Part shown: positions 323-59,592 of the stretch, piece after piece
How positions within the stretch are numbered: the stretch's first letter is position 1
How the letters are laid out: each line of letters starts with the position of its first letter
Assembly (NCBI GenBank): GCA_032718475.1
Contig: JAUCBJ010008061.1
Span: 1 to 64,000, forward strand
Source: Nemertoderma westbladi
Taxonomy: Eukaryota > Animalia > Xenacoelomorpha
DNA length: 64,000 nt
Direction of reading: 5' to 3'
The notes under the pieces: generated by a model
Seen by the model: only the letters and a program-made list of their open reading frames with translations
Told to the model about the DNA's origin: nothing
Database searches by the model: none
Program-made: the position numbers and the translations under genes

Positions 323-865
323 TGTGACGGGATCCAAGAAGGATCCCGGTTTATCCGGTTTGTCAATTCACGCGTCCCCGCCGTGTGTGAAAGATAAAGG
401 AGTTTACGTCGTTCGTTGTATATAATGTCCGGGATATGTATAGTATAGATATAGATAATGGATAAGATAAATATTGTTGTACGCGGAAGGCGGGAAACGG
501 TAATTGAAATCCCGGTACTTCCCTAGCTAAACTACTGCTACTGTAACACCAATAACACTGAGATAACTGAATGAGATGATTACTGCCAACTGGTTATATT
601 GCACGGGTTGGCCTTGTTACTGTACCTAACCGATGCCTTTCCCCCCTCTGATTGGCTAATGTCCCTATTGGCGCCCTTTGGAGTGTTTCCGTTCACTCCA
701 CCTGTTGTCCCTCTGTTAGGGGTTTGGCCCCTGACCCTCATTGTGTTTCTCCTTCCCATTTTATTGGGGTGACACGAGTTGGTTGGTTACCCAATCTCGT
801 GGCCCCCAATATTGCTTAACGGTTGACTTTATGGGTTTGTGTTAGCGGAATTGGATAAGCTAACA
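323..865 (-). mobile_element. Solo LTR of the Bel/Pao family
   Basis: TG...CA ends, 5-bp TSD GTGCG (318-322 / 866-870), and clear similarity to the LTRs at 43833-44380 in reverse complement. Confidence 0.93.
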
Positions 866-8900: not shown

Positions 8901-10016
8901 CTCACTGACATGATGTACACATATATAGGGTCGAATGAGAATGAGAGTATGAGGGGGAATGAGAGTGAAGAGGTATGTGAAGAAGTGAAGAAGTGTGCGA
9001 GGAAGTGAAAGAAGTGCGAGATTCGAGTGTGGGGAGCGAGCATGGAGGGGGATGAGTCCCAAGGGACTGGCGAGAGAGGAAGGGACGATAAAGTCCGTGA
9101 GAAAATTGTGTGAGGAGTGAGGGCAATCATCTAAAAAACAGAGACACCAGATACCTTGGTACAGCTTAGCACGCAGATGTACCAAGGATGGGTAGTGATA
9201 ACAGACCCATGAGGGCTGGCCTGGAAAGCCGACCCCGAGAAAAAAAATCCACCCCACATCCAATAGTAGATTGGATTCCAGCGGAATTGAAGCGCATTTG
9301 AGGTTGATGCTATCTTCTCACTGGGAAGATAGCATGGGGGGAGTGTAAGCGGATTCAATTCCGTGCATTACCCACCGAAAATGGGACTAGTGGCATTTTA
9401 CCAATATAGTTGGCGATGTGAGATTACCAATAATAATCTCACCTCATAACCAACTGGGGGGGGGGGGGGGATACACGCTGTAAGCCACAGAGAGAGGTGA
9501 AAGGTCAAACCACCTCAGAGGGAGAAACCAGCTAGTGAGGCTAGCACCGGGGGGTAACACCTACAGGGAGTGGCGAAGTGACAATTAGTATGTAAGCCAA
9601 TAGCGGGCAGGAGAGCACGTTGGGGAGGACAAGAGCGCATCCATTGGGTATTAGAGACCGCCCAGTAGTGTAGGGCTAAAACCAATATATGTCAGTGATA
9701 TAACTGTTGTAATCACTGATTATTAGTTAGTTGATTTAGTTGATTCCCTTACGGTTGTGAGACCGGAATAGTTTTTGACCGTGGTCTTTATTAGATCATT
9801 ACTATATTGTTGTTACTGTTATTGTGCACTGCATATCATCATATTCAGACTGTGCTATTATCAACTGCTGTGATTATCAACACTGACAATTTAACTATTT
9901 ATTTCCAATGGCCTTCGGCCTAAAATATCCAGCACTCAGCCAGCAGCTTACGAACGCGACGACGCGTACAACCTACACTGGGAGCTGATACTGTCAACTC
10001 CATCAGTCCCGTCCCA
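5973..10016 (+). mobile_element. Non-autonomous Bel/Pao element D (partial 5' LTR, gag capsid + protease, no RT/IN, 3' LTR ~9344-10016)
   Basis: 5973-6281 repeats ~9708-10002. PPT GGGGGGAG lies before TGTAAGC at 9344. The ORFs are homologous to 47520-51269. Confidence 0.85.
6364..8779 (+). pseudogene. Bel/Pao gag capsid, zinc knuckle and aspartic protease, frameshifted, plus a non-pol tail
   Basis: IELPPVEPFKF capsid region, CHRCAVGGH, LVDCGAG, DPVAILTPFGW across three ORF pieces (6364-7539, 7512-8318, 8261-8779). Confidence 0.85.
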
Positions 10017-15437: not shown

Positions 15438-18279
15438 AATATGAAACCTGTGACGGGATCAAGGGATCCCGACCGGGTTTAGTTCCTACGTGTCACAGCA
15501 GGCTGATGGGTGGATATGGTTAAATGCAAAAGTGTTTGAGTTCTGTGTTCAACGGATAATATAATATAAATTGATGGTAGCACTGAGTAAATGAATGACC
15601 GGTAGATATTGATGATATATGTATAGCAGCACCGCAATGAAGGTCGAACTATGTTGCCGGCCTGCACTAAACTGATGACTGAGTAAACTGAATAATGGGA
15701 CCGGTAACAGCATAATATATGTGACGGGATCCGAGAGGATCCCAGTTTATCCGGCGTTGTTTATGTACGCGTCCCCGCCGTGTGAATGGAAAAGGTAATA
15801 GTTGTTCTAGTGTCGTTGTCGAACTCTGATACACGTTGAGATAATAAATGATATGAGTGATACAGATAGCACAGTAGATAACCGAGATAATAAGGTAATA
15901 TACCAGTAATATGGTGATGGTGGCGACGGTCTTAACAGTCACCATACTGCCTGACTGTACTGGGATAACTACTGAGTAAACTAACTACAATGATTACTGT
16001 ACAGGTAATATATACTGCACGGGTTGGCCTCATTGCATTACCCAGCCGGTCCCTCCCCCCCATTGGCTAATATCCCTGTTGTCGCCCTTTGCCCCCCTCT
16101 GAAGTGCTTCTCTTCGCCCTTGCTATTCTCTCTCTGTCAGGGGTGTAACCCCTGACCCCTATTGTGCGTTTCTCCTTCCCACTTTGTTGGGGTGACACGA
16201 GGTTGATATTGGTAATCAACCTCGTGTTCCCAATATTGCTTAACGGCTTACTTTATGGGTTTGTGTTAGCGGAATTGAATACGCTAACACTCCCCCCCAT
16301 GCTATCTTCCCGGTAAGAAGATAGCATCCAACTCAAGTGCGCTACAATTCCGCTGGATCCCGATCTAGTATCGGGTGTGGGGTGGGTCTATTTTCTTTCG
16401 GAGCCGGCTTTCCAGGCCGCTCCCTATGGGTATGATGTCACTACCCTCTGGCATCTCGTGTCGGGCCGATCCTGCGCTTCTCTCACACAATTTTTGTTTC
16501 CCCGGCACTCTCACCACTCTCACCCTAACTCTCGCATACTCCCGGACCTCCTCGTCCCACACTCTTCCTCTCACTTCTCCTCCCCCACACTTGAATTGCG
16601 TCCATGTTAAGACTGTGACGGGATCCGAGAGGATCCCGGTTTATCCGGCGTTGTTTATGTACGCGTCCCCGCCGTGTGAATGGAAAAGGTAATAGTTGTT
16701 CTAGTGTCGTTGTCGAACTCTGATACACGTTGAGATAATAAATGATATGAGTGATACAGATAGCACAGTAGATAACCGAGATAATAAGGTATTATACCGG
16801 TAATATGGTGACGGTGGCGACGGTCTTAACAGTCACCGTACTGCCTGACTGTACTGGGATAACTACTGAGTAAACTAACTACAATGATTACTGTACAGGT
16901 AATATATACTGCACGGGTTGGCCTCATTGCATTACCCAGCCGGTGCCTCCCCCCCATTGGCTAATATCCCTGTTGTCGCCCTTTGCCCCCCTCTGAAGTG
17001 CTTCCCTTCGCCCTTGCTATTCTCTCTCTGTCAGGGGTGTAACCCCTGACCCCTATTGTGCGTTTCTCCTTCCCACTTTGTTGGGGTGACACGAGGTTGA
17101 TATTAGTAATCAACCTCGTGTTCCCAATATTGCTTAACGGCTCACTTTATGGGGCTGGTTAGCGGAATTGAATACGCTAACACTCCCCCCCATGCTATCT
17201 TCCCGGTAAGAAGATAGCATCCACCTCAAGTGCGCTACAATTCCGCTGGATCCCGATCTAGTATCGGGTGTGGGATGGGTCTATTTTTCTTTCGGAGCCG
17301 GTTTTCCAGGCCGCTCCCTATGGGTATGATATTGCTACCCCGTCTTGGTACAACTCCACCTATTTTGTACCAAGACATCTGGCGTCCCGTGTTGGGCCGG
17401 TCGTACGCTTCTCTCACACAACTTTTGTTTCCCCAACACTTTCACCCTAACTCTTCCACACTCCCGGACCCCCTCGTCCCTCACTCTTCCTCTCACTTCT
17501 CCCCCCCCCCCACACTTGAATTGCGCCCACACTCTCTCCACACTATCTCCACACCACCTCTCGCTATCTCTCTTGCGTTCTCCTCCCATACTCTTCTCAC
17601 ATTCCTCTCATACCCTCTCATACTCCTCACTCTCCACGCCTGTGGTCCCATCAAGTGCCCCTCCTACTCGTATCCCGGTAGTGCCCATCCGCACGATTCT
17701 TATCCCGGAGGATACGAGCTTTCACACTAAATCCCGAACTCCGCCCTGTTGTTCAATGACCACACACTTATCGGGTTCCACACATGTGTGCACCATGTTA
17801 CTAGGAGCCGTCTAAGTCCCGTCCTGTCGCCCTAGTCAATTAGTCCCCAGTCCCAGTAGCTAATTGGAAAAGGTTGTGCTTGACTACGGTACATACTGTA
17901 TAATACATATATACGAGTTATTATATAATTTTTTATAATATTATAATTATTATTATTATATGTATTATATTATATGCTCGTCTACATAACGCGCTTCATC
18001 TCTACTACCCACTACTCTCTCTCTGCCTTTTTCGCCTGGCGACTTCTTCCAGTCGCTTCCCCTCCAGTCTATCCGCTTCCAACTTCTCCCAGCTCTCTTG
18101 TGTATCCACCTCCCTGTCTACTGGATGCCGGCTGTTGTATTACACCGACTCGCCCTCCAGCCCCGGGCGGTCTACCAGACCTCCGAAAGCCACCTAGAAG
18201 GCCCTTCTGTAGTTCGGAGGTGATCTTGATATTTGCCCCTATTCTGTGCTATTACCCTATCTACTTACCTACTAACTTC

Positions 18280-19113: not shown

Positions 19114-21895
19114 CTACTTGTTTCCTCTAGCTTGTTCTCTTGTTCCTGTATGTTCTTGGTTGTTTATACTGCGGATATTTTGTAATGGGGGAATGTCACC
19201 CTGTCCCCCCCCAACCAGTGTTATGTTTGGTACTGGGGTTGATGTTAATATATTGGGGCCCATCCATCTATCTGCAATATCCCCCTCAACCGGGTATATG
19301 TTATGTCCCTGTGTATTATAGTCATGCTGCTGTACCGATACAGGCCTACCCACTTCCTGCCTACCTACCGGTATGTACTCCGTGGCTTCCGGGTTTAATC
19401 CCGTCGTCCGCGCTACCCTATCGCCTATTCTATCTCTCCCAGCATGGCCTATAATAGTATGTGCAGTAAGGCCTACAGTATGTCCTGCAGTCTGCATGTG
19501 CCCTTTCGAACCGAAGTTTAATCTTCGCGAATCTCGAATCTCCCCGCGACTACCGCACCCTCGATCGGCAGCTATATCCCGTCGGGAAGCTTCTCTTCGA
19601 TCCCCTCTCCTGTTCTCGACTTTGCATTGGTACGTCCTGTACCCCTCTCTTGGCGTGTGGTGCGTTTCTCCGGGGCGACGGCAATCTCCCGAAGTTCGAC
19701 CCCACTGACTCCCTGACTCCATCTCTACTATCGATGGTCCGTTATCCATCCTCGCACTCCTATCGTTTGTGGCGACACCTTTTCTACTATCTCCTCTTCT
19801 TCTCTTTTCAGTGCAGTATTCCGGCTCGTGAGATCTCTCATCGACCTCCCGGTCAAACTCCACTGTTCTTCTTTCCTTTTCTGATCGGGCTTGACGCTTC
19901 GTCCGCCCTCTCGCGACGTCAACCTGTCTCTCTCTGCTCGATTGCACGCCGCTGGGGATACTCGCAATCCCCCTATTACTCTCCGTCGCCGGGTGTTGCG
20001 GTTTACCTAGCTCGGCCCGCGCATTATCCGCCGACGCCTGTGGGACACTCTCTGCCCCCCCTCTCTCGCTACTAATCCCTCGCGGTGGGGTGCCCGTAGC
20101 CCCCCCCCCACTCGCCACTTCTAATTTCACTATCTCTTACTACACCTTTGCGTCCCTCTTGTTGGACACTCTCTACCCCCCTTCTCTCGCCACTAATCTT
20201 TCGTGGTGGGGCTCCTGTAGCCCCCCCCCACTCGCCACTTCTAACTTCACTACCTCTTACTACACTTCTACACCCCTCTTGTTGGGCATTCTCTGCCCCC
20301 CCTCTCTCGCCACTAATCTTATGTGGTGGGGCGCCGGTAGCCCCCCCCCACTCGCCACATCTAACTTCACTATCTCTCACTTCGTCTCTACACCCCTCTC
20401 CAGTCGACGCACTGTCTCCACTACGGCTGGGTCTATTCACCCCCGCCTCTCTCTCTACTACTGCGTGGCCTATCAGGCCCACCCCGGGTTGGCTCAACCC
20501 CGCCACTTCCTGCCTACTAACTACGTGGCCTACCAGGCCCCCGTCTGCCGGGCTATACACGTCTGACACGTTCACATTAATAGCACCATTCCCAATATTA
20601 TTCGTTAAATCAATTAAATTATTATTTTCAAAATTTAAATTATTATTCGAATTATTTGAATTATTGTGAATATTTGAATTAATGTTATTATTTGAATTTG
20701 AATTTAAATTACTACTACCAGGTAAAATATTATTTGCTGCAATAAAGGGATTAGGGTTATCTACTACGGTACTATTAATATTAACTATTTCTAACGTACT
20801 ACTACTACCCCCCCCCCCCCCCCCACCCGTACGGCTACACCAGTTCTGGTTCTCTCGCCCGGTGTATGTAAGTGGGGTCTCACTCTCTGATAGTTCCAAC
20901 CGCGCCAGTTCTAGTCGGCGCTGATTCAGTTTGGCTTGATATTGCGTAAGCCACTCTAGTCGGGCACGCAAATCATCCCGCACGCGCTTACTCTCTATCT
21001 CTCTCTCCTGATCTCTACACTCCTCGGCTCTCTCTCTATCCTCCCTTTCCCACTCTCTAACACTCTGGGCTAGCTCCGCAATTTCTAAATCATACGCCAG
21101 ATTTATCTCCCGCACCCTTCTTTCTTTTGCGGAGGATGTAGCAGACTTATCGGTTGCGACGGACTCCCGTCGCCCCTCCGTCCCAACAACTTTCCCCCGC
21201 CTCCCGGGACTTCCTCCGACCGACGAGACTGAATCCTCGGGGCTAACCTCGGATTCGCCCTCCCCAGGTCTCTTCCAACCCACTAATTTTACTCCCCGGG
21301 CATCGACTGAGTATGGCCCTATGTACACTATACAAGGTAGCATACCCCTACATTCCCATAGTTCAAGCAGTTCGTTTGCAACCCCTCTCGCTCTCTCGCT
21401 GGCTAGTTCTTCCTGCCCAAAACGCTTTAGATAACCAAAATGTTTATCTGACTCACCTAGTCCCTTTGTCAACTTTACCTCGTCTATCCTCGCCCCCTCT
21501 ATGGCCTCCTTAAGTAGTTTCCGGGTCGCGTTGTAGGCCCGTCGAAGTCGATCAGAAACCCTGACGTCCTCGTCGCCGACCTCTCCTCTATCCTTCCGTG
21601 TCCGGCGTCGTACCGTCGGCCCCACCGTCGCTGTTCCGGTGGACCGTCCGTCGTCCTTGGCCTGTGGCTGGCCGGCGACATCGGTACGTCGACCCTCGCT
21701 CCGCGTCGACTCGTCTTTCTCCCTTTCGACTCCCGACTCGTCCTCTCCTTGTAGACGGCCCCCCTCATCTTGGATCGCCGGATCGTTCGTCGACGGATCC
21801 GGCGTCGTGGGTTGATACCGTCTCGCCATGGCCTCGTGGATCGTTAGATCGTCGTCCGGGGTCCGCGGCGGTGTCGCTTCTCCTTCTCGACTCAT
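19114..21895 (-). pseudogene. N-terminal gag region of element A (coiled coil, Asn-rich), stopping before the capsid
   Basis: ORFs 20072-21895 and 19114-20130 are homologous to 44464-47625; the frame changes at a G homopolymer. Confidence 0.8.
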
Positions 21896-24081
21896 CTTTA
21901 CTTTAGTAGCTGTCAGTCACAGTTCGGCAGGCCTAGTGTTAAGACTGTGACGGGATCCGAGAGGATCCCGGTTTATCCGGCGTTGTTTATGTACGCGTCC
22001 CCGCCGTGTGAATGGAAAAGGTAATAGTTGTTCTAGTGTCGTTGTCGAACTCTGATACACGTTGAGATAATAAATGATATGAGTGATACAGATAGCACAG
22101 TAGATAACCGAGATAATAAGGTAATATACCGGTAATATGGTGACGGTGGCGACGGTCTTAACAGTCACCGTACTGCCTGACTGTACTGGGATAACTACTG
22201 AGTAAACTAACTACAATGATTACTGTACAGGTAATATATACTGCACGGGTTGGCCTCATTGCATTACCCAGCCGGTGCCTCCCCCCCCATTGGCTAATAT
22301 CCCTGTTGTCGCCCTTTGCCCCCCTCTGAAGTGCTTCCCTTCGCCCTTGCTATTCTCTCTCTGTCAGGGGTGTAACCCCTGACCCCTATTGTGCGTTTCT
22401 CCTTCCCACTTTGTTGGGGTGACACGAGGTTGATATTGGTAATCAACCTCGTGTTCCCAATATTGCTTAACGGCTTACTTTATGGGTTGTGTTAGCGGAA
22501 TTGAATACGCTAACAATATATATGTGATTGCCTCTACTTTACTGTGGCCTTTGTCCAGTGGATACTTTCCCCCACTCCTATTGGCTTATAACCTACTTCA
22601 CGCCTCTCACCTCTCTGGGAGTGCTTCCCCCTGCTGTTGGCCCCTGTAGGTTACTTTCCCTCCCGAGGTGGTTTGACCTCTAACCTCCCTTTGTGTGGCT
22701 TTTGGGGTTTGTGTTATCCCCGTTATTGGGTGTGATACGAGATTGGTTGTTATCAATCTCGTATCTCCAATATTGCGGAAAAGGGCGCCACTTCCCAACT
22801 TTATGGGGGTAATGAGGCGGAATTGAATCCGCTCACACTCCCCCCCATGCTATCTTCCTGGTGAGAAGATAGCATCACCTATGAGTGCGCTTCAATTCCA
22901 CTGGAACCCGATCTACTATCGGGTGTGGGGTGGAGTTCTCTTACTTGGAGTCGGCTTTCCAGGCCGCTCCCTCTGGGTATGATATTACTACCCCCTCTTG
23001 GTGCAACCGCAACCTATGTTGCACCAAGTCATCTGGCGTCTCTGTTTGAGACAATTGTGGAATCCTCACACAATTTTAAAAACCCTCTCACTTTGAACTC
23101 TAACTTCTCACTCTAACTCCACTTACTCTCTCTAACTTCACTCTGCTCCCCCCACATTCGAATTGCACTCCTCTCACTCTCTCTCATCCTGTCAACACCT
23201 CCTCTCCATACTTCCCTGTTCTCTACCACTCCTAAAGGCGCTAAATTTCTTATGATATCATACCCTGTGCCATCATTCTATCTACCTTATCTAAATCTTA
23301 CTTCTTGCTTACTACTTACTCTACTAACTATCTTACTACTAACTCTATTCTACTAACTCTAATTATACTAGCTCTCTAACTCTAACTCTACCTCTACTAA
23401 CTCTCTTAACTCCTTAACTCTGTAACTACTAACTCTTCTAACTATGTGGTGCTTTCAGTGCCCACAACCACTCTGCTACTACCTCTATCTACGTGGCGCT
23501 TTCGGTGCCCACAACCTCTCTACCTCTATCTACGTGGCGCTTTCGGTGCCCACAACCCCTCTACTCTCTTTCTACGTGGCGCTTCCGGTGCCCACAACCT
23601 CTCTACTACTAGTTTCTACGTGGCGCTTCTGGTGCCCACAACCCCTCTGCTACTACTCGTGGCATGTCAATATACCACACTCCCTAACTTGCCTACTTCT
23701 AACTTAATGGTACCACGTACCCTCCTACTCCCGTGGTATGTTTATATACCACACTCCCTATACCCTCCGACTTCTAACTTAACGGTACCACGTACCCTTC
23801 TACTCCCGTGGTATGTTTATATACCACACTCCCTATACCCGCCGACTTCTAACTTCTTACTAACTTCTAACTTTCTTACTTCTACTTACTTTCTAGCTTC
23901 CTACTTCTTACTAACTTCTAACTAGTGCTCGCTATCTAAATCTTACTAACTTCTACTAACTTTCTGACTGCTACTTACTTTATTTTATTATTTTATTTAT
24001 TTATTTAATTATTTGTGTGTGGGAAGGGCGTCTCGCTCTCATTCCCACCCCCCTCAGTCCAAAATATTGGACGACTAATCT

Positions 24082-38758: not shown

Positions 38759-39631
38759 AGACGACTAGCAAAAACTTATATTGAAACAGCTGTCGCGAAA
38801 TTGCTGAATAACTCGTTATTTGGTAAAATGATAGAGAAGATACGAGATCGCTGTAATTTCCGTATCGCTAATAGCAATGAGAAATGCGATCAATTGGTGA
38901 AACGTATAAATCACGACAATTTCATGATTTATAACAATTCCTTATCGGGACACTTATTAGTGAAAGACAGCGTGACACTAGATAAACCAGTCTATGTAGG
39001 TAGTACTGACTTGGATTTGGCTAAATTGGATATGTATGAGCTGTACTATAATAAATTACTACCTATTGAGAAAGAATTAAACTGCCGAATTGAAATTGTA
39101 GCATCAGATACAGACTCATTAATAGGTTGTTATTATAATACATCGCAGAGTAATTTCTTAAAAGCCTTAATTAAAAATAATATTCTAGATACCTCTAATT
39201 ACCCCAAGGATCACCCTCTCTACAGCGATAAAAATAAATCCAGACTCTATTACTGTAAAGACGAGTTGTGCTCGAGAGAGATTAAACAAGCAGTATTTTT
39301 AAGACCAAAATTATATTCAATTTTGGAATGGAATAACAAAAATATACGACGGGTGAAAGTAATAACAAGACCTGTCGTGGATAAAAAAATATGCCACGAA
39401 GATTATTTAAGAGCATATAAGGATAACGAAGAAATTTCCAAGGAAACGCATCAATTTCAGAGTCAATTACACAAAGTGTACACTGTAGCACGAGATAAGT
39501 TTCCTCTCAGCGCATTTGACGATAAACTTTATTGGGTTAATAAAAATCATTCACTTCCCTGGGGTCACTATCAAACAAAGGTTGAAAAACCCGTAAAAAA
39601 AACAATATACCTATTTATCGGGAGCCAAACA
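38759..39631 (+). pseudogene. C-terminal part of protein-primed family B DNA polymerase
   Basis: Motif B KLLNNSLFGK, KPVYVG, motif C ASDTDS, LRPKLYS, LSAFDDK..SLPWGHY. A stop at 38756-58 precedes it; the exonuclease and motif A are absent. Confidence 0.93.
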
Positions 39632-40189
39632 ATGAACTCTCAGATAGTTAATAAGAATGTAAGTTGCCAGCAAGTGTCAGCGATTAATTTAAAAGAATTA
39701 AAAAATCAATTATCTGGTAAACACATACTCAAACCAAATCAGTTTATATATAAGATATTTGGTGCCACATTATTAATATTTAAAAATGGTCGTATTACAT
39801 TATTAGGTAGTGAGTATAATTTCCAAAAAGTAAAAAAGCATATATTTGATAAAACTAGTATTAATTTGATTTTAAAATCTGTTAATTTATGTACTTATAT
39901 TTTTAGTATTAAGTCTGTAGTCTATAGGTTATTGATAAACAATACCGGGTTTTATGTTGTCTTTGATAATGTACAACTTCAAGTTATATATGAACCTGAA
40001 ATTTTTAATAATTATTGCAAAATAAGAATAAATAATACCGTAGTCATTTGCTGCTTTCATACCGGTAAATGTACTTTAATGTGTTCACCTAGCAAATTTC
40101 ACATTTATTATCCTATATTTAGTAAACTGGTTAATTATTTATTAATGTTTGGTGTTGTGACTTTAGGTGTAGAATATATTGGTAATTAG
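39632..40189 (+). CDS. TATA-binding-protein-like two-repeat domain, in frame with pPolB, with its own ATG at 39632
   Basis: Repeat 1: QIVN..INLKEL..ATLLIFKNGRITLLGS. Repeat 2: SVNLC..YEPEIF..VVICCFHTGKCTL. Compare TBP TALIFSSGK and YEPELF..LLIFVSGK. Length ~185 aa. Confidence 0.75.
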   Translation: MNSQIVNKNVSCQQVSAINLKELKNQLSGKHILKPNQFIYKIFGATLLIFKNGRITLLGSEYNFQKVKKHIFDKTSINLILKSVNLCTYIFSIKSVVYRLLINNTGFYVVFDNVQLQVIYEPEIFNNYCKIRINNTVVICCFHTGKCTLMCSPSKFHIYYPIFSKLVNYLLMFGVVTLGVEYIGN

Positions 40190-43832: not shown

Positions 43833-44380
43833 TGTTAGCTTATTCAATCCCGCTAACACCCCATAAAGTTATAAGCCGATAAGCAATATTAGGAGCCACG
43901 AGATTGGGTAATTAACCAACTTGTGCCATCCCAATAAGAATGGGAAGGAAGCACACAATAGAGGGTCAGGGGCCAAACCCCTAACCCAGAGAGAACAGGA
44001 GGAGTGAACGGGAACACTCCAAAGGGCGCCAACAAGGGTATCAACCAATCAGAGGGGGGAAAGGCATCGATTAGGTAGAGTAACAAGGCCAACCGTGCAA
44101 TATAGCCACTTGGCAGTAATATTACCAGTTCAGTTATCTCAGTGCAATACCGGTGCTAGTTAGGTTATTACATAGTTTTAGATAGGGAAGGACCGGGACT
44201 TTAGTTACCGTATCCCGCCTTCCGTATACGACAATATTATCTCATACTATATCTATATCTATATTCACATGTTATATTATATACGACAAACAACATCAGA
44301 ACTCGTTTCACTCGTTATACACGGCGGGGACGCGTGAACTAAAACCGGATAAACCGGGATCCCTCTTGGATCCCGTCACA

Positions 44381-44389
44381 GTAACTAAA
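44381..44389 (+). promoter_or_regulatory. Non-tRNA primer-binding site GTAACTAAA, complementary to the LTR 9-mer at 44200-44208
   Basis: Lies immediately after the 5' LTR, lacks TGG, and is the exact reverse complement of TTTAGTTAC. Confidence 0.7.
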
Positions 44390-44463
44390 CCCTTCGGCAG
44401 TAACCAAACCAGCTGCCGCCCTAGATAAACTTAACCACTAGCCACCGAAATCTGCAGAAGAGG

Positions 44464-47400
44464 ATGAGTCAGTCAGGTGACACGACACCGACGCGGACCC
44501 CGGACGAAGACCTAACGATCCGCGAGGCCGCAACCAGGCGATACAGGCCCACAACGCCGGACCCATCGGTAACGGGTCATCTGGCAGTTCAAGACGAGGG
44601 GAGCCTGGAACAAGAGGTCGAGCCAAGAGGAAGGGAGAGCGAGACGGGGGGAGACGGAGATGAGTCGACACGGGACGGAGATCGGCGCACCGATGTCGCC
44701 GGCCAGCTACAGGCCGAGGGCGACGAGCGGCCCACCGAAACGGCGATGGTGGGGCCGACGGTGCGACGCCGGACGCGTAGAGACGGAGGAGACATCGGTA
44801 CCGATGTCGCCGGCCAGCTACAGGCCGAGGGCGACGGACGGCCCACCGGAACGGCGACGGTGGAGCCGCCGGTACGACGTCGAACCCGGAGGGACGGAGG
44901 AGAGGTCGGCGACGAGGACGTCGGGGTTTCAGAGCGACTTCGACGGGCCTACAACGCGACCCGGAAGCTAATGAAGGACGCCAAGAAGAAAGGGGCGAAG
45001 GTAGACGAGGTGAGACTGAGAAAGCGACTAGGTGAGTCGGATAGACACTTTAATTACCTAATACGTTTTGGGCAGAGAGAACTAGCCGAGGGGAGAGCAA
45101 AAGGGGTTGCCGGCGAACTGTTTGAACTATGGGAGTGTGGGAGTATGGAACCTAGTGTAGCGCCAGTGTACATAGGGCCATACTTGGTCGATGCCCGGGG
45201 AGTAAAATTAGTGGGTTGGAGGGGACCCGAGGGGGGCGAATCCGAGGTTAACCCCGAGGATTCGGCCTCGTCGGTCGGAGAAAGTTCCGGGAAGCGGGGG
45301 AAAGTTAGTAGGTCGGGAAGGCGGAGGGGGTCCGTCGTAACCGATAAGTCTGCTACATCCTCCGCAAAAGAAAGAGTGGTGAGAGAGATAGGTGCCGCAT
45401 ACCGTCTCAACATGGTAGAACAAGGTCAGAGGGAAATGGAGGAACGGTTAGAGGAGGGGAGAGTGCGGTTAGAGAGGGAAGCGGCATTGATTAGAGAAAC
45501 CGGAGAGAGGGCCAAAAGGGCTTTGAGAAGCCTTAGGGAGTGTGAGGAAATAGAGGAAAAGGAGTGTAGGGAGCGTGAGGCAAGGGAGGACAGGGAACGC
45601 AAAGAGCGTGAGGCAGAACGCAAGGAACATGAGGCGAGGAGGGAAAAGTAACGCAAGGAACATGAGGCGAGAAGGGAAAAGGAACGCAAGGAGCGCGAGG
45701 TGAGACGAAGGGAGAGCGTTAGGAGTGTAGCGGAGTCGGCCGCCCGGGACACCCAGGAGTGTGAGAGGAGAATGGCAGAGGCTGAACGAGAGCACAAGGA
45801 ATTAAAGAGACGCCAGAGTGTGCTTGCGGAACATAAGATTAGACGGGCGCACGAGCTGCAACTGGTGCGAGCGTCGCCGTCTGAAAGCGGGGCCGGCTCG
45901 AGTATTTTTGGGGAGCCGGGGGCCGTAGATACATTTATTGATACCCCACTGACAGGGACCGCGCGACAGACCCAAAACTGGTGTGACCGTACGGGCGGGG
46001 GGGGGGGGGGGGGGGTAATGACAATAATGATACAGTAGACGTTGTTAATGATGATAGTACCGTATGGGACAACTCTAATCAAACCTTTATTGCAGGAAAT
46101 ACTTTGCCTAGTGGTAGTAATTTAAATTTAAATCAGAACAATCCTAATATTAATGTAGAAAATAATTCTAATATTAATGTAATTACGCAAAATAACTCAA
46201 ATAATCAAAATAATAACCCAAATTCGAACCTACAAAATAATTTAAATAACGCGATTACGCAGAATAATTCAAATAATTTAAATAATGATCCAAGCCCGAA
46301 TTTACAAAATAACTCAGATAGCGTAGTCGCGCAGAATAATACAAATGGTTTCGTTCCAAGCGAGCAAATCAATTCTGTTTCCAATATGGGTGCTATTAAC
46401 GTAAACACGTCGGACGTGTATAGCCAGGCAGATGAGGGCCTGGTAGGCCGCGTAGTTGGTAGGCAGGGAGTAGGGGGCCTGGTAGGCCACGTAGTTGGTA
46501 GACAGGGAGTAGAGGGCCTGGAAGGCCACGCAATAGCAGGAGGAGAAGCGGGGGTGAATAGACCCGACCGCGGTAGGGTTGATGTGTCGACTAGAGAGGT
46601 ATATAGTAGCGGGGTGAGAGGTAGCGAAGTAAAATGTAGCGAGTGGGGGGGGGGCTACAAGGGCCCCACAACAGAGAGTTAGCGGCGAGAGGGGGGGGGG
46701 GGGGGGGGGGGCAGAGAGTGTCCCACAGCCGTCAGCGGACAATGCGCGGGCCGAAATAGGTAAACCGCAACGACCGGCGACGGAAAGTAATAGGGGGATT
46801 GCGGATATCCCCAGCGGCGTGCGACCGAGCAGAGAGAGACGGGTTGACGTCGCGAGAGGGCGGACGAAGCGTCGAGCCCGATCAGAGGAAGGAAGAAGAA
46901 CAGTGGGGTTTAACCGGGAGGTCGACGAGAGATCTCACGAGCGGGAATATTCCACTGATAGGAGAAGAAAGGAAGACAGTAGTAGAAGTATCGCCGCGAA
47001 CGATAGAAGAGCGAGGACGGATAGCGAGCCGTCGATAGTCGAGATGAGAACGGAGAGTCAGTGGGGTCGGACTCCGGGAGATTGCCGTCGCCCCGGAGAG
47101 ATGCGACCCGGCGAGGCGCACTACGCGCCGAGAGAGGGGTACACAATGTATCGGTACGAAGATGAGAACAGTAGAGAGGGGGGTCGAAGAGAAACTTTCC
47201 GACGGGATATACCTACCGATCGAGAATACGGTAGCCGCGGGGAGGATTATTCGAGAAGAATAAACTTCAATCCCGAACAACACATGCAGACTGTAGGACA
47301 TACTGTAGGCCTTACTGCACATACCATAGGCCATACTGAGAGAGGCAATGTAGGCGATAGGATAGCGTGGACAACGGGATTAAACCTGGAAGTCGCGGAA

Positions 47401-50400
47401 TACATACCGGCGGGTAGGCCAGAAACTGATAGGCCTATACCGGTACCAGCACAGCAGTATGACTACAGCATGCAGGGACATAACATATACCCAGGGGAGG
47501 GGGGAATTATTGCGGATAGGTGCATGGGCCCCAACATATTAACATCAACCCCAGTACCAAACATACCGGTGGGGGGGGACAGGGTGACATTCCCCCATCA
47601 CAATATCAACAATATACCCCGATAGGAGCAAGAACAACGAGACCCTTGGATGAGAATAAGTCGTGTGACACAGAGATATGGAGGGGGCCGCTACCCCCGA
47701 TGACATACCCAAGTCAGAGAAGATCGAGAAATAGGACGGACGAACCGCACCAGACAGCGGAAACTATACAGCACCCGTCGAATCCATTGGAAGCGCAGGC
47801 GATGGGGATGGCCACGTTGATCGATGCGTTGAAAACGAGGATCGAGCTACCACCAGTGGAACCATTCAAATTCGATGGGAGTAGGCCGGAAGAATATCTA
47901 CAGTTTCGGCGCATGTATAGTAACGAAATACTAACAAAAAACTTGACGCAGGCGGAGTGCCTAAAGTATCTACAAGTGTACATGGGAGGCCCAGCATACG
48001 ACATCGTGAGGCAATATCAAGGAATAGAGGGCGGCTTCACGACAGCATGGCGGGCACTGGATAGGGAATACGGGCACCCGGCCAAGATCATCAGGCAGAC
48101 GCTGAGGGGCATAACATCGGGTGGCCTGCAGGATAATCCCGTTAGCATTAAGACGTTCGCTAACAAAGTCGAAAAGGCGCTAATCGTGCTGAAGACGCTA
48201 GACGCGCCGTACGAGCTCAATGCGTCCAACAACATCACCACGATAGCGCAGGCACTACCAAACTGGCTGCGCAACAAGTGGAGAAAAATCGCCTTCTCTA
48301 CTCGAGATAAGAAGGGTGCGGAACCGGGTTTAGAAGAAATGTCAAACTTCTTAAACTACGAGGCTGAACTAATAACTGACCCAGTCTATAGCGAAGACAG
48401 CCTGGGAAAGGGACCGAAGACAGACTACCATAGACCGAAACAAGAGCACAACACATCAAACGCATTACCGAGACTCAGGCAATCATTGCCATATGCAGCG
48501 ACGCAGGGGACTGCAAGTCCACAGCTAGCCGAGGATAAGACAACATCATGGAACGGACAGGGAAACAATAATAACACGAATAAACATAACCCCAGTACGT
48601 CCAATCGGCAAAACCCAAACAATAAGAATAGTAGGGACTTTGGTACGAACGCAACTGCGATACGCAATGCACTGTATAAAGAGGGCTACGACCCAAAGAG
48701 CAAATGTCAGTTACACGCAAATGCGCTTCATCAAACTATGAACTGCAGGTACTGGCAGGCGCTACCTAGGCAAGATCAGATAGATTATGCGTTCAGCAAT
48801 AAAATCTGCTCGCGATGTGTAATGAGTGGACATAGAGCAAGGGAGTGCAAGGAGAAGCCAATGAAATTTGGTCAAAGGAGAGGCCAAACGATGGCGACGA
48901 GCACAGTAGGGGCGAAGAAGAGAGGAACGGTGCTACTTGGAGTAGTACCAGTACGAGTGATCGGGGAAGGCAATCGATCAGTAACAACACTAATGCTGGT
49001 TGATAGTGGAGCTGCCTTCACATTAGTCGAGGAATGGGTGGCCGAGGAGATAGGATTGAGAACGAGGCCAAGCAGGATGGCGGTAACAACCATCTCTAGC
49101 AAAGATGAGATCCTGGAGATGAGAACAGGACGGTGCGCAATTGCAGCAGTGGCACCAGGATGCGACTATGGGGCAACCATCGACCCCATTCAAGTGATAG
49201 AGTCAATTAATATCAATGCCAGGCGACCAACCAACATCGAGGTTGAGCAGTACAAATTCCTGGACAACATTGACTTCTCAATCCCAGACGTGGACGTTAG
49301 GAAGGTATCCATCATAGTAGGTATGGACTGCCCAACAGCCCACGAAAGAATGCAAACGGTCTTCGGCGAAGACAAGCAGAGTGACCCGGTGGCCATATTA
49401 ACACCATTCGGGTGGACGCTGAGTGGTCCAATCAAGAGTAAGATACCATTTAGGATGTCGGAGACATCAGGATGCATGTTCGCGGGAACAATGCAGGAAA
49501 TGGGTGATGAGGGAGCAGAGGAGCAGCTTAAAAGACTGCTCAGACAGGATTTCGAGGGATTGAAAGAAACCGGGGTCGGGACCTCGGTGGAAGACAAGCA
49601 GGCTCTACAAAGCGTGGAGGAATCAATGACATGCGATGAGGGACGGTATACTATAGGAATGGTATGGAAACTACCGAAGATACCGCTGCCCGACAATAGG
49701 GGGATGGTACTCACGAGACTCCGCAAGCTGAAACAAACACTAAAACGGAGCCCCGAGAAGAATGAGTACATCCACAGGACGATTAAGAAGTACGTCGAGA
49801 AAGGATGGGCCGTGGAGTTACCGGTCGACGAGCCGAACACGGATAGAACATATTACCTGCCACTGCACGTGGCTTTAGATCCAAAGAAAGGTAAACTAAG
49901 GATGGTAGTCGACGCATCGGCAAAGACCGACGGAAAATGCTTAAACGATTACCTGTTAGAAGGCCCAAATATTTACAATTCGGGCATAGAGGTGTTACTT
50001 AGATTTCGAAATGGGAAACACGCCTTCACGTGTGACATAGAAGGCATGTTCAACCAAGTCCGTGTAACGGAAGAAGATAGCGACAGTCAACGCTTCTTAT
50101 GGTATAACGGCGAAGAAGAACCGCCGATAATACCAGCATATAAGATGATAGTACAGAACATGGGGGCCAAGTCGTCTTCATTTACGACGACTATGGCAGT
50201 GAGAGACACAGTAAAGGGGAAGGAAGATAGATACAGCAGTAGGGCCGTCGATATGATTCGACGCGGCTTCTACGTAGACGACGGAATGGAGTCTGGAAAT
50301 ACGGTTAAGGAGATACTGGATACAGGGCGCGAGGTTCGCGACATCCTAAAGGGATCCGGCTTTAACCTGACCAAATTCCAATCCAGTTCGGAAGAATTTA

Positions 50401-52915
50401 TCAAAGCCATAGAGGACAGGAAACCAGAATCGACCATGGATAATCCCACAACAGCCAAAGGGCAGGACATGGCGATTAAGAGAACAGAATCTCAGCAGAA
50501 GGCATTGGGAATCGTGTGGGATAGAAAGACAGACGAACTGAAGTATCAGCTGAGCCAGGAGGGCGCAGACATCCACACGAAGAGGGGCTATGTATCGTAT
50601 ATAGCAAGGATATACGATCCCCTAGGCCTAGCATCCCCATTATTAGTCACGGGGAAACAGATACTCAAGAGAGTATACAAATTGAAAGATGAGTGGGACG
50701 TAGAGGTACCAGAGGAAATCAAGAGACAGTGGAGCAAGTGGACAGGAAACTTGGAGAAGATGGGAACATACAACATGCCAAGGGTGTATTTCCCGGATGG
50801 GAACATGACGAATCTGGACCTACACATGTTCTCCGACGCGTCGTTGGAAGCGTACGGAGCGGCACTCTACTTAGTACAACGAGAGGGGGCTCATAAGCCA
50901 AGACTAGCCTTTAGCAAAGCAAAGTCAACGCCGCCAGATTCAGCATCAGTTCCCAAGTTAGAATTGACAGCTGCGAGACTAGGAGTAAGAGCCACAGCCT
51001 ACCTAGTGGATACTATTCCCAACATAGTGGAGACACACTACTGGACGGACTCCATGGTAGTGCTTGGTTGGCTACACAACGAAAGGACGAGATACCCGAT
51101 ATTCGTCGCGAATAGAGTGGTCGAAATAAGGGCGAGCACAGAACTGGAAAGGTGGCACTACTGCCCAACAGACGAGAACCCAGCACTGTCGAGGCACTGT
51201 CGAGGGGCGTGGAACGCCACACTTTCCGGAAGAAGGAAGTATTGTGGCAACATGGGCCACAATTCCTGAGCGATAGGGAGGCCTGGCCGCCGATGAGGAA
51301 GGTGGACCCCGGCTCGGAAGTAGTATCAGAAGGAGAAGAGGGAGATTCAGAGGGAGAAGAGATATACTCCCAGATGGTGAGGGAGATTAGGGACGTGCAA
51401 CCAGGAAAGGAACTGTGCGATAACCCGACGGATAAACTCCTCAGCTACAGTTCTAGTTGGTATAAGACCAAGAAACTAGTGGTGTACTGGAGAGCCTTCG
51501 GGAATTTCCTTGCGGGAGTTGGCAAGGACAAGAAGATCAGGACAACCATAGATCTGGAAGGAGCGGCCAAGGCAGTGATCCGCTATGAACAACGGAAGAA
51601 CTACGGCGACGAGGTGGAACGCGTCGGTAACCAACAGCACCTCCGACGGGACAGCGAGCTGATCACGCTGTCGCCACAACTCAATGACGACGGGATTCTA
51701 GTAATGAATTCTAGGGTGGGATACAACAACAGCATATTGGTACCACCGAAACCCATCATCATTCCTACAGGATCGCCAATAGTCCACCAGATTATATGGG
51801 ACTCCCACAAATCGATATTGCATGGGGGCACCAACCGAACCTTCACAGAGATAAGGAGGACCTATTGGGTCAAACAATTAAGGAAGAAGGTTAAAGCGGT
51901 AGTGGGGCAGTGCCAGACCTGCCGACGAGCGAAGAAGGAGCGAGCCATACAGGAGATGGCGCCACTACCGGCGAGTAGGGTAAGACAGCACGACCCGCCA
52001 TTTACACATTGCGGTGTGGACATGTTCGGGCCGATAAAGATCAAAGTGATGCGACACACGGAGAAACGCTACGGCATTATCTTCGTATGCAACAATACGC
52101 GGGCGGTAGGGATAGAACTCGCCCAAGATGCAACCGCATCAGCGTTCATTAACGCCTTAGAAAGATTTAGGGACCGCAAAGGTGGGATGATCGCAGTGAT
52201 ATACAGCGACAACGGCACCAACTTTGTGGGCGCAGAGAGTGAGATGGCAGAGGCCTTGGACATCTTGGAGGGGGAAGAAGTCAGGGCAGCCATGAGACGA
52301 CGACAAGTAAAGTGGGAGAGAAGGACGCCGTATGCACCACATACACTAGGATGCGTCGAGAGACTAGTGGGCAGTTCAAAGCGTCTAATGACGAAGCTAA
52401 TGAATACCCACATGGTCACTGAGGACGTCTTACGGACAGTACTTGCGAAGTGCGAGGGGATCATTAATAGCAGACCGCTATACCCGGAGAATGATGACCC
52501 TGAGTCACTAGACGTGCTAACGCCTAGCCATTTCCTAATGGAAAGGCCAGCGACCATCGATATGCGGGGTGTAGACCCAGATGACATACACTCCCGCCAA
52601 AGTTGGAAAGTCGCTAAAGCAATAAGCGCAGAGTATTGGAGGAGGTGGGTCGAGGAATACCTACCCACACTCCATAAGCGAAGCAAGTGGAGGAAGTCAA
52701 ACAGGGAGTTAAGAGAGGGAGATCTCGTAATCGTTACGGATGATACTATCATCAACAACCAATGGCGGTTGGCGAGAGTTGTAGGCACCTACTCCGACGA
52801 GGACGGAAGAGTCCGATCGGTAGAAGTGCGGATAGGTGGAAAGATAGGTGCGAAGGACAGAAAAACCTACAGGAGAGCTGTAGGTAAATGCTGTCTATTA
52901 GAAGGGGCACCTTAG
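44464..52915 (+). CDS. Bel/Pao gag-pol polyprotein (one stop and several frameshifts in this sequence)
   Basis: Capsid IELPPVEPFKFDG, CSRCVMSGHRAREC knuckle, protease LVDSGA, RT FYVDDG, RNase H FSDAS/YWTDS, integrase H..H..CQTC with GVDMFG/SDNGTN/VERLVG, and WVEEYLPTL. The PR-RT-RH-IN order and motifs are Bel/Pao. Confidence 0.95.
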
Positions 52916-53029
52916 CAGAGTTAGAGAAAAGTTTAGTCGTCCAAGTTTTGGACTGAGGGGGGTGGGATTGAGGGCGAGACGCCCTTCCCACAAACAAAAT
53001 AATAAAAATAAAAAAAATAGTACATGGTA

Positions 53030-53490: not shown

Positions 53491-53978
53491 AAGAGAGGGA
53501 GTAAGAGGTAAAAAAGGGGATATAGATATAGGTATTAGTTAGCAATTAGTAGAGAGAGGGGGGCATATGAATACAGCTGGATAAATCGTGTGGCCACACG
53601 ACGCATACTGCTGTACTGCATAGGCCCACAGAGTAGGCCAGAATGTGGATTAGAGAATAGAATAATCCATAGGCAGTAGTAAGTAGTGGGACAGTAGAAT
53701 CAAAGTAAATGGATAAATAAATAAAATAGGGCTGAAAATTGTAAAATAGTGGCAACACAAGGGAAGTTATTCTAGAACATAATAAAAGTAACGGACAGAA
53801 ATTGTAAATTACGCTCATTTACTAGCTTCAAAATTAATTAGGAATAATTTAGGTTAAAAGGCGCAGTTAAGTAGAAATAGGCCATTATCGAACTGTACAG
53901 AACATCCTAGATACATCACTCATCTGTATTGCGCCTTGGTAAGGCACCACCTTGCAGGTGAGCGAGTGAACGTTCGGA

Positions 53979-55247
53979 ATGGCGAGTAAGTTGATCAGAA
54001 AGAGAAATGCGGAGTCAGGAGGAAAGGAGATACTGGTGGATTTCACCGAGAGGCATCCGGAAGAGAAGACGAGAGGATACTACAAGAGGTTGGAAAGGGG
54101 TCACGCGGTACGAGCGCTGCAGGATCACTTCCGGGAGGCGCACGAACAGCGGCTGGTCGGGACCTACGGGACCCCGTCGCTGGACAACGCGATCTTCCAA
54201 CACTTCCACTACGTGGTGAAAGGGGACGAGGCGAAGTTCGGGATTCCGAAATACCCGAGGGAATCACCGAGGAAGGACTGGAAGAGATTCATAGAGTCCA
54301 TCAACAGAGGAGGATATATGATCCTAGATGACGAGGGAACCGTGGAAGACGAGGCGGGTTCGAGACGAGGAACGGCAGGGTCGGCCAGGACCATACTCCT
54401 ACATTTGGCCGCGCCAAATGGGGACATCTTCTTATTCGACCTAGGGACGTATGGGAAGAAGGACGGGCCGAAATTAGACCGATTACCGAAAGCGGTACAA
54501 GTCTTAGTAAGAGAAAAGTCGACGACGAAAGTGGGATTGGCGATTCGCGAGGACGCGGAGAGGATCATCGGTCCGGACGCCACCAACCTCCTGGATATGC
54601 AGAAAGTCTTTATGGCTATGACGGCACCGGATGGATTGGGGGTAGTCGGAAACACAGGCCAATGCGGGGCGGTGGCGATGGGCCAATTATTGGGGCTCGT
54701 ATGCCACAAACCGATGGACTGGGGGAAGTTTAGGGAAGAATACGGAGCAGAACTAGCGAACTCGCTAAAGTGGGGAGCGAGACCGGGAAAGCAGGAGGTA
54801 TATCAGTTCCGCAGGGGAGCGATAAAGGTATATCAGAAGCGATATATCCTGCAGGAGGACTGGATGATGATAAGTTTGCTTAACTTATTCATGACCGTGA
54901 TTATCGAGAGGGAACCAGGGGCATTTCTGTTATCGGGATCACCCCTAAGATACAGGAGAGCCTTTAAAGTGGCCTTTGACGGTCTGGTAGACCACCCGGG
55001 GCTGAAGGGCGAGTCGGTGTATTACAACAGCCGACATCTGGTAGACGGGGAGACAGACACACCATATCAGAGATGGGAGCAGCTAGAGACGGATAGACGA
55101 GAAGCAAAGCGACTGGAAGAAGTCGCTAGACGGGAGAGGATAGAAGCAGAAGAGAGGGAAGAGGAGGCCAGGACACAGAGTTACGGCTTCGAGGAACAGG
55201 CGGGCCTAGATGAACTTCATTGGACTTCGTCAGGGAGTTCGGGGTAG
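53979..55247 (+). CDS. Extra ORF3, part 1: WRN/RNase D-like DEDDy 3'-5' exonuclease domain
   Basis: ExoI ILDDEG, LLHLAAPNGDIFLFDL, LPKAVQVLV..TKVGLAIREDAERI (ExoII), LLDMQ, MGQLLGLVCHK, QKRYILQE (ExoIII with E in place of D). Confidence 0.75.
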   Translation: MASKLIRKRNAESGGKEILVDFTERHPEEKTRGYYKRLERGHAVRALQDHFREAHEQRLVGTYGTPSLDNAIFQHFHYVVKGDEAKFGIPKYPRESPRKDWKRFIESINRGGYMILDDEGTVEDEAGSRRGTAGSARTILLHLAAPNGDIFLFDLGTYGKKDGPKLDRLPKAVQVLVREKSTTKVGLAIREDAERIIGPDATNLLDMQKVFMAMTAPDGLGVVGNTGQCGAVAMGQLLGLVCHKPMDWGKFREEYGAELANSLKWGARPGKQEVYQFRRGAIKVYQKRYILQEDWMMISLLNLFMTVIIEREPGAFLLSGSPLRYRRAFKVAFDGLVDHPGLKGESVYYNSRHLVDGETDTPYQRWEQLETDRREAKRLEEVARRERIEAEEREEEARTQSYGFEEQAGLDELHWTSSGSSG

Positions 55248-55598
55248 TCTCTAGGGCAAGAATTGGGATGGACAGTGGGATCGCCGAAACAGTCGACGTC
55301 GGGGTTGCGAACGATGCCCATACCAGCGGGCGCCGAGGGCGACCAACCGCCAAGGAAGTTAAGGGAGCTAGAGTGATGGAGAGCTACGGGCGAGAGCCAA
55401 GGCGGGATGGGACATAGTGGATCCATCGGGATACCGGGATTGGAGACACTACCAGAAGAGGAGGACGACGACGACGAGTTCGGAGAGATGCCGCCCATCG
55501 AGAGGATAGGCCACTCGGACACGGACTGGGTTGGCGGAAGGGTGGTGACGGCCAGTGGGGCGAGGGCCTTCTGGAACAGATCCGGCAAGCGGACCTAG

Positions 55599-56294
55599 GT
55601 GCACGAGGAGCCGGCGATTGATTTCGCGGGGAGCACCATCAGGTTGGGCGAGCAACCGGGGACGGCACCACGGATAGTATTCGGGGAGACGATGCCCGAG
55701 AGGGGCGGAGAGATCGACGTAAACAGGGAGACCAACGTAGAGAAGTTCGCCTACCAGCGACTCCACAGACCGCGGAGATCGCTTGGGACGAAAGACGAGG
55801 TGGGACGGGAGACATTGGTACTCGGCTGCGACTACTGTGGGAGACAGACCCATCGGGAAAGTAGCTGTCTATGCCGGTTCCAACAGGGAACCTTTTGTCT
55901 CTACTGCAGAGAACCAAGCCACAGGATGGGGGCGTGTCCACGGTTGCATAACCGATGTCCAAAGTGCCACTTTCGGGGACACTACGGACGCGAGTGCGAC
56001 TGGATGAACGACGAGGAGAAGTTCACAAGATTCGAGGAGTGGGCCGACGTCGGGGCCATGACGCGCCAGCGCATGAAGGCCCAGGAGTTCAAGTGGGGTT
56101 TCTTCCTTATCAATCAGGAGACTCACATGGAAATCATAAAGCGGAGGCTACCGTTTACCTACCAAGAGGTAGCAACGGCGGCGTCGTACGCTGGAGTGAT
56201 GAACACGCAAAGGTATCTGGACAGGTGGACGCCAGAGAACCGAAGGGAGTTTAGGGATTTCTTGGCGGAGCACGTACCAAAGGCAATAAAATGA
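55599..56294 (+). CDS. Extra ORF3, part 2: three CCHC zinc knuckles, same frame as part 1
   Basis: CDYCGRQTHRESSC, CLYCREPSHRMGAC and CPKCHFRGHYGREC are all CX2CX4HX4C. Confidence 0.8.
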   Translation: MHEEPAIDFAGSTIRLGEQPGTAPRIVFGETMPERGGEIDVNRETNVEKFAYQRLHRPRRSLGTKDEVGRETLVLGCDYCGRQTHRESSCLCRFQQGTFCLYCREPSHRMGACPRLHNRCPKCHFRGHYGRECDWMNDEEKFTRFEEWADVGAMTRQRMKAQEFKWGFFLINQETHMEIIKRRLPFTYQEVATAASYAGVMNTQRYLDRWTPENRREFRDFLAEHVPKAIK

Positions 56295-57259
56295 TCCTAT
56301 GGGACGCCACTAGAGGGAGACAACCGGTTGAGGTTGAGGGACGGAATAATAGTGCGGAGTGCGGAGAGAGTGCGGACGCGATTCTAGTGTGGGGGGGGGG
56401 GGAGAATAAGAGGCTGAGTAAGGGACGAGGAGGTCCGAGTGTGAGAGAGTTAGGGTGAGAGTGAAGAAGAGATAGGGCGGAAGTGTTGGGGAAACAAAAG
56501 TTGCGTGGGAGGTGAGCGCGATCGGCCTGACATGAGACGCCAGGCACACAGGGTAGCGTTATCATACCCATAGGGGGCGGCCTGGAAAGCCGACTCCGAG
56601 AGAAAAGAATTCCACCCCACACTCGATACTAGATCGGGATCCAGCGGGATTGTAGCGCACTTTTGGTTGATGCTATCTTCTTACCGGGAAGATAGCATGG
56701 GGGGAGTGTTAGCTTATTCAATCCCGCTAACACCCCATAAAGTTATAAGCCGATAAGCAATATTGGGAGCCACGAGATTGGGTAATTAACCAACTCATGC
56801 CATCCCAATAAGAATGGGAAGGAAGCACACAATAGAGGGTCAGGGGCCAAACCCCTAACCCAGAGAGAACAGGAGGAGTGAACGGGAACACTCCAAAGGC
56901 CGCCAACAAGGGTATCAACCAATCAGAGGGGGGAAAGGCATCGATTAGGTAGAGTAACAAGGCCAACCGTGCAATATAGCCACTTGGCAGTAATATTACC
57001 AGTTCAGTTATCTCAGTGCAATACCGGTGCTAGTTAGGTTATTACATAGTTTTAGATAGGGAAGGACCGGGACTTTAGTTACCGTATCCCGCCTTCCGTA
57101 TACGACAATATTATCTCATACTATATCTATATCTATATTCACATGTTATATTATATACGACAAACAACATCAGAACTCGTTTCACTCTTTATACACGGCG
57201 GGGACGCGTGAACTAAAACCGGATAAACCGGGATCCCTCTTGGATCCCGTCACATACCG

Positions 57260-59580: not shown

Positions 59581-59592
59581 TATTATTATTAT

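Follow-up and report, generated by a model that had tools for sequence, protein, structure and literature searches.

The 64,000-nucleotide stretch of Nemertoderma westbladi DNA analyzed here (the window) carries five related LTR units, designated A, B, C, D, and solo, with LTRs of 543 to 673 nt and 5-bp TSDs (Table 1). The LTRs that the initial annotation had called intact are so, but the elements are not: the gag-pol region of B is spread over five open frames, whereas A has three LTR copies and no pol domain that a domain search could find. C has lost its 5′ LTR and D its PBS region. Two PBSs of the family are visible, those of A and B. The point at which A inserted (22516/15719) is the TATA box of the C 3′ LTR, and through the TSD both sides retain a TATA word. 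The 5′ LTR remnant of D starts approximately at the TATA box, and its U5 hairpin loop is fused straight into gag. The solo LTR lies inside a 21-nt tandem array (221-2178), together with a 212-nt, 99% inverted repeat (884-1095/1777-1988). Elsewhere in the window, an rve integrase occurs with a weak A32-like ATPase match at 57972-63870, which we take to suggest a Polinton-type element; a HECT-domain fragment adjoins an rva_4 integrase core at 30706-33526; and an ORF of 476 codons with a TBP-domain match lies at 38759-40189. The retrotransposon family is abundant, because public sequencing runs from the same organism cover it to a depth as high as 10^4 to 10^5, a value that is not a copy number. 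Loose ends at the end of the solo LTR were absent from the run contigs among the matches listed (24 of 231). Scanning with the U5 motif yielded chance matches alone in metagenomes (18/18) and in viral contigs (9/9), and a protein scan found no family members in viral contigs.

Table 1. Features of the retrotransposon family in the window (positions are those of the whole stretch)
Feature	Position	Strand	Remarks
Solo LTR	323..865	-	TSD CGCAC
Solo U5 look-alike	371-363	-	GTGAATTGAC
Solo 9-mer with CGT	508-497 (9-mer 508-500)	-	TTCAATTAC-CGT
Solo predicted +1	568	-	motifs
D 5′ LTR remnant	5962-6281	+
D in-register 9-mer	9771-79, plus 6041-49 in 5′ remnant	+	GTTTTTGAC
D 3′ LTR	9344..10016	+
C in-register 9-mer	15651-43	-	TAGTTCGAC
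C 3′ LTR, 3′ half	15449..15719	-	5′ half at 22837-22516, element A in between
Element A, whole	22515-15720	-	TSD TATAT, three LTR copies
A 3′ LTR	15720..16289	-
3′ internal fragment of another family member	16290..16604	-	80% identical to that of A and to that of B
Extra (middle) LTR of A plus exactly 9-nt PBS, then jump	16605..17182	-
A PBS (21945-37) and leader to ATG	21893..21945	-	PBS GTCTTAACA
A 5′ LTR	21946..22515	-	570 nt
A 9-mer	22163-22155	-	TGTTAAGAC
A predicted +1	22208	-	motifs
Element B, whole	43833-57254	+	13.4 kb, TSD TACCG
B 5′ LTR	43833..44380	+	548 nt, TG..CA; 3′ LTR differs at 5 sites
B TATA-like box (44100-05) and initiator TCAGTT	44100..44135	+	motifs; predicted +1 = 44132
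B rod 5′ arm, leader-pairing	44132..44199	+	folding prediction
B 9-mer, predicted self-primer 3′ end	44200..44208	+	TTTAGTTAC
B helix 2, 5′ arm	44209..44219	+	CGTATCCCGCC
B helix 2, 3′ arm	44323..44332	+	GGCGGGGACG
B U5 look-alike of PBS, alternative 9-mer partner	44334..44343	+	GTGAACTAAA
B terminal U5 hairpin	44355..44375	+
B non-tRNA PBS	44381..44389	+	GTAACTAAA
B leader to first ATG (44464), rod 3′ arm	44390..44466	+	folding prediction
B gag-pol, Bel/Pao type	47520..52915	+	two overlapping frames; DUF1759, protease, RT, Peptidase_A17, integrase, DUF5641
B extra ORF, WRN-like 3′-5′ exonuclease look-alike	53970..55247	+	lead only; language-model features
B second extra ORF, Cys/His knuckles	55599..56294	+	no Pfam match
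B polypurine tract and 3′ LTR	56699..57254 (LTR = 56707-57254)	+	tract GGGGGGAG

The protein domains listed for gag-pol identify B as a Bel/Pao element. They follow the Bel/Pao order, with a weak RVT_1 match and a strong one to Peptidase_A17 (E 3e-40), and the LTR lengths (within a range of 0.2 to 1.2 kb) and the polypurine tract fit as well, in agreement with the family assignment made at the outset. The domain search returned no chromodomain, and the domains are of the Pao type rather than those of Ty3/gypsy chromoviruses. The ICTV profile of the Belpaoviridae describes an 18-nt PBS for tRNA-Arg or tRNA-Gly, a length of 4.2 to 10 kb, and a poorly understood replication (PMC8742986). The elements resemble this profile in domain set and order, LTRs, and polypurine tract, but differ from it in a site of 9 nt that is not of tRNA type, in the length of B, and in top RT-region relatives that are 31 to 38% identical to B, among the matches listed. 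Membership in Bel/Pao rests on the proteins, and the missing tRNA-type PBS is a departure from the family description.

Downstream of gag-pol, B carries two extra ORFs, and both B (53062-53511) and A (18332-18519) have short-period tandem repeats on the 3′ side of their coding regions. The resemblance of the first ORF to a 3′-5′ exonuclease is a lead from language-model features, by which look-alikes score 0.94 and PF01612 is present on 18 to 38% of the cluster members. Searches of this ORF against Pfam, PDB, and homologs gave no match, the sole further match being repeat-like, and its predicted model is poor (pLDDT 37). Words spotted by eye resemble what we take to be the ExoI-III acidic motifs. 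The C-terminal part of the ORF is matched within element A at 18232-18056. An extra 3′ ORF resembling a 3′-5′ exonuclease is shared with the bdelloid elements Juno and Vesta, whose ORF3 is a DEDDy exonuclease; these belong to other LTR lineages, and the available text on them makes no link to priming (PMC5408684). It is speculation that the ORF of B trims the plus-strand overhang.

The initial annotation had proposed that these elements prime from their own RNA, on the basis of the first 9 nt past the LTR. In B, these are indeed the exact complement of a 9-mer within the LTR, and in A the two sequences differ from those of B at 5/9 positions and still pair exactly. The 9-mer is followed by CGT in both elements, and the solo LTR carries TTCAATTAC-CGT at the equivalent position. 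No TGG occurs between LTR and ATG (84 nt in B, 51 nt in A). The longest perfect complement of the PBS is 9 nt in A and in B, with a single occurrence per LTR, and cross-pairs between A and B reach ≤5 nt. By comparison, internal 9-mers with a perfect complement in the own LTR amount to 17/11,891 (0.14%) in B and 9/4,291 (0.21%) in A. If the 9-mers are self-primers, the PBS expected after the LTR would be GTAATTGAA for the solo type, GTCGAACTA for the C type, and GTCAAAAAC for the D type; in the 64-kb window, the only occurrence of GTAATTGAA is the reverse complement of the solo 9-mer. Rfam detected no tRNA match in the window, and a search of the LTR for a tRNA-like primer RNA gave no match with either Rfam or ARAGORN. 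At 15330-15420, tRNA-like words flanked by short inverted repeats were seen by eye, for which both programs report nothing. A primer spanning a splice junction was rejected for A and B, because the best junction complement (5 nt in B, none in A) does not exceed the unspliced 9 nt. Lack of G-U pairs was also dismissed as a mark of the 9-bp duplex, since the long pairings described below have 0/38 and 2/28 and the trait is thus not distinctive.

The 9-mers of A and B both end directly before the 5′ arm of one shared helix (helix 2). The pairing of this stretch with GGCGGGGACG in U5, noted at the outset, forms 10 bp of about -17 kcal/mol, and U5 likewise contains the GGGATCC/GGATCCC hairpin. The own partner of helix 2 was the best partner in 6/6 rows with three different 3′ arms, one common to A, B, and solo and a different one in each of C and D; the helix is weak in the 3′ copy of D (-7.9). 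U5 also contains a look-alike of the PBS, which changed together with the 9-mer between B and solo (GTGAACTAAA versus GTGAATTGAC). Covariation of the look-alike across all five LTRs was rejected, as it holds in B and solo but not in A and D, with a tie in C. Folding of the uncut RNA favored the look-alike state in B by 3.3 kcal/mol (-89.7 for priming versus -93.0) and was balanced in A, with predicted PBS-pairing probabilities of 0 in B and about 0.6 in A; a nick at the end of the 9-mer changed these to about 0.42 and 0.14, respectively. A two-state switch of the 9-mer between look-alike and PBS is thus plausible in the folding models. AATAAA is absent downstream of the 9-mer. A, B, and solo have GATAAA (44348-44353 in B) 26 to 27 nt ahead of the LTR end, which C and D lack; this position suggests a very short U5.

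A TATA-like word placed 29 to 33 nt before a TCAGTT/TTAGTT initiator, both of which we take to be consensus promoter motifs, was used to predict the transcription start. In the four whole LTRs tested, one such pair occurs per LTR, with none on the other strand; 8 of the 12 pairs in the window fall within LTR copies, that of C included, and these are not independent, because the LTRs are homologous. The predicted start lies upstream of the 9-mer by 68 nt in B, 60 in solo, 45 in A, 42 in D, and 38 in C. In folding predictions, the stretch from start to 9-mer forms a long rod with that from PBS to AUG. This rod comprises 38 pairs in B, compared with 28 in A, and ends at the AUG in either element. 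For the leader, no LTR window was better than the initiator-to-9-mer stretch, in A (-31.2, next -21.0 among 437 other nonoverlapping windows) as well as in B (-38.7, next -31.1 among 346). Shuffles were as strong as the real rod in 6/300 cases for each element, and A × B crosses gave z values near 0. The upstream stretch of C paired with the A leader as well as A's own did (z -3.6; 1/300), C and A being similar there. The additional length of B is spread over both arms of the rod. That the leader pairs with the stretch upstream of the 9-mer suggests that this stretch is transcribed; the predicted pairing extends upstream of the initiator, and the rod therefore does not fix the start. A 5′ piece with the rod would bind with a predicted -40 to -45 kcal/mol; the 9-mer by itself would reach -7 to -10.

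Element A provides a trace of a different kind. Its middle LTR runs into GTCTTAACA and from there directly into the 3′ internal fragment of another family member, with no microhomology; the base after junction nt 9 is not that of the leader and does not continue the primer copy either. According to the available text of PMC12657518, faulty second-strand transfer in HIV leaves comparable LTR-PBS-jump junctions, and read-through adds primer sequence. By this likeness, the extra LTR and its 9 nt are likely the trace, in one case, of misplaced plus-strand strong-stop DNA. Plus-strand copying would, by analogy, have halted at nt 9 in this one event, which could also reflect a later deletion. The junction supports the 9 nt as a working PBS.

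Distant relatives were collected by a protein scan that returned 21 loci, evidently host contigs within bacterial bins (an origin we infer), to which 9 further regions were added. After 7 short loci were left out, 23 were examined; 11 had a repeat pair, and 8 were testable, 3 having been dropped because the repeat touched the contig end. Self-complementary sites of 11 to 12 nt were found in 7/8 testable relatives, in 6 of them across a predicted splice junction, in contrast to A and B, whose complements need no splicing. In one locus, L039, an 11-nt complement that requires no splicing lies ∼30 nt past an AT-rich box and precedes CGT (null 0/300). In L076, L040, L033, and L035, the latter two close kin, 11-nt complements span a predicted GT-AG junction inside the LTR (null 0/300 each). 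A widened search added two sites at predicted exon-exon junctions, namely, 12 nt at offset 8 in L042 (null 0/200) and 11 nt with one mismatch in L032 (null 1/200). The eighth locus, L069, served as a control: it lies on a long branch, and its primer site is of the TGG tRNA type, with no self-complement. The rod was rejected as a general trait of the relatives, being seen in 1/7. In a tree that excluded 4 rows for insufficient length and had no named reference elements, B sits on a long branch (2.11) in no supported group. Judged from these sequences, self-priming looks widespread among the relatives of B, and the sites in 7/8 of them indicate that this family is probably not an isolated lineage. 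With these sites, and with B unplaced in the tree, the independent self-priming lineage within Bel/Pao that had been proposed is not supported as worded.

Self-priming in some form, summed over the readings considered, is highly probable. The single reading that best accommodates the data, and which we regard as probable, is that the element's own RNA provides an internal primer, cut right after the 9-mer and clamped by the rod. Weighing against it, the folding of B does not favor the priming state, the rod recurs in a single relative, and the junction trace is one case from a family with two visible PBSs. The initial proposal is thus partly supported: self-priming with a primer 3′ end at ..AC|C is the best reading, to which the junction trace and the relatives add support, whereas its Tf1 geometry and independent lineage find no support as worded. 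Transcription would begin at the initiator, which in A and B precedes the 9-mer by 45 to 68 nt, and the 5′ untranslated region would fold into the rod, with helix 2 and the U5 hairpin flanking the junction. The 9-mer may then toggle between the U5 look-alike (off) and the PBS (on). A cut at ..AC|C, by analogy made by the element's RNase H, would expose a 3′ OH on a 5′ piece of about 54 to 77 nt, held in place by the rod with a predicted additional -31 to -38 kcal/mol or so. Plus-strand synthesis would copy 9 nt before strand transfer, and trimming by the exonuclease-like ORF is one candidate for the stop. The primer would be copied into the next-generation PBS in each cycle, which would explain the covariation of 9-mer and PBS.

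The halt of the junction trace at exactly 9 nt favors a classic self-priming of the Tf1 type, in which the primer is 9 nt long because transcription begins at the 9-mer or the RNA is trimmed to that point. The long primer is the harder fit to a 9-nt stop, which a 9-nt primer explains more simply; in addition, an RNA starting at the 9-mer gave pairing probabilities of 0.19 (B) and 0.56 (A), and the unspliced site of L039 past its AT-rich box would fit this arrangement. We nevertheless consider such a start unlikely, since none of the five LTRs has a TATA-like word 30 nt before the 9-mer, their sole TATA and initiator pair lies 38 to 68 nt further upstream, and the intervening stretch pairs with the leader as if transcribed. 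Identical pairing would also serve a primer taken from element RNA made otherwise, either a short RNA ending at the 9-mer and supplied in trans from any LTR or the 3′ end of genomic RNA, and a family so abundant in sequencing runs could supply it. This source is rather improbable in our judgment: none of 12 poly(A)-signal-like hexamers occurs ≤70 nt upstream of the 9-mer in the five LTRs (candidates are found 26 to 40 nt ahead of the end of the LTR), the piece from start to 9-mer does not fold stably by itself (z +1.6 to -1.6), and the covariation of helix 2 suits cleavage in cis.

Two further readings take the primer away from the element. The second 9-mer partner in U5, co-changed between B and solo, and a rod that stops at the AUG in A and B would be compatible with a pairing that is a regulatory fold alone, acting in translation, packaging, or poly(A) control, with something else as the primer. 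Such a fold does not account for a duplex that begins at the first base past the LTR, for a junction trace that delimits those same 9 nt, or for the lack of an alternative primer site before the ATG, and we hold this reading to be very unlikely. Priming at the 9-nt site by a host tRNA fragment or another small host RNA has precedents, as internal-tRNA and half-tRNA priming are known for Copia elements in the available texts of PMC5445492 and PMC6317226. Separate host RNAs would be needed for A and B, yet the matching LTR 9-mers would be left unexplained and Rfam finds no tRNA in the window, so that host priming retains the smallest share of our belief.

The self-primer of Tf1 pairs over 11 nt, compared with 9 nt here. 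Tf1 and its relatives prime with the 5′ terminus of their RNA, as given in the accessible portions of bioRxiv 10.1101/2022.12.06.519325 and PMC4600332. From the same portions, the internally primed reading shares with Tf1, Tf2, Tj1, and the Tf1/sushi chromoviruses of Ty3/gypsy the lack of a tRNA site, an LTR-adjacent PBS complementary to the LTR, and duplexes flanking the predicted cut. It differs in that the family is Bel/Pao, not Ty3/gypsy, and that the 9-mer is predicted to be internal, not the RNA 5′ end. Moreover, both other Tf1 duplexes described there use LTR sequence downstream of the primer, which helix 2 fits, whereas the best partner of the leader lies upstream in folding predictions. 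The Tf1 geometry envisaged in the initial annotation is thereby not supported, since motifs in five LTRs predict a start 38 to 68 nt ahead of the 9-mer and the leader is predicted to pair with that upstream stretch. If the prediction is right, a start upstream of the 9-mer would be a real difference from Tf1. The elements belong to Bel/Pao and would work like Tf1, outside the Tf1 group.

Self-priming deduced from LTR-PBS complementarity is also shared with plant TAR (Copia) and Tcn1, members of other superfamilies for which the text available in PMC6317226 describes neither a rod nor an internal primer. In fungal GalEa, the Conserved Hairpin Site presented in the available part of PMC5445492 likewise occupies the position of the PBS with a non-tRNA sequence of 9 bp. 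It pairs with a downstream partner, and a complement in the LTR was not found, whereas the partner here is in the LTR. We found no published self-priming Bel/Pao element in the openly accessible literature searched. The accessible text of PMC554778, PMC3118150, and PMC6238403 has no passage on PBS or tRNA, and that of PMC8220671 treats the PBS in generic terms only.

On a broader view, which we put forward tentatively and with more doubt than conviction, a large part of the Bel/Pao elements of aquatic animals would have left tRNA behind. Internal self-primers would be made in at least three ways, by the RNA start, by a splice junction, or, as here, by a long capped 5′ piece clamped by the start-to-AUG rod and gated by the U5 decoy switch. 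In the present family, a 3′-5′ exonuclease encoded by the element would limit the plus-strand copy to 9 nt, replacing the m1A58 stop of tRNA primers. An internal primer raises the question of how plus-strand synthesis stops without a modified tRNA base. If the self-priming reading is true, annotation tools that require a tRNA PBS would miss or mis-bound such elements, and self-priming would extend to a third LTR family, in a geometry that departs from that of Tf1.
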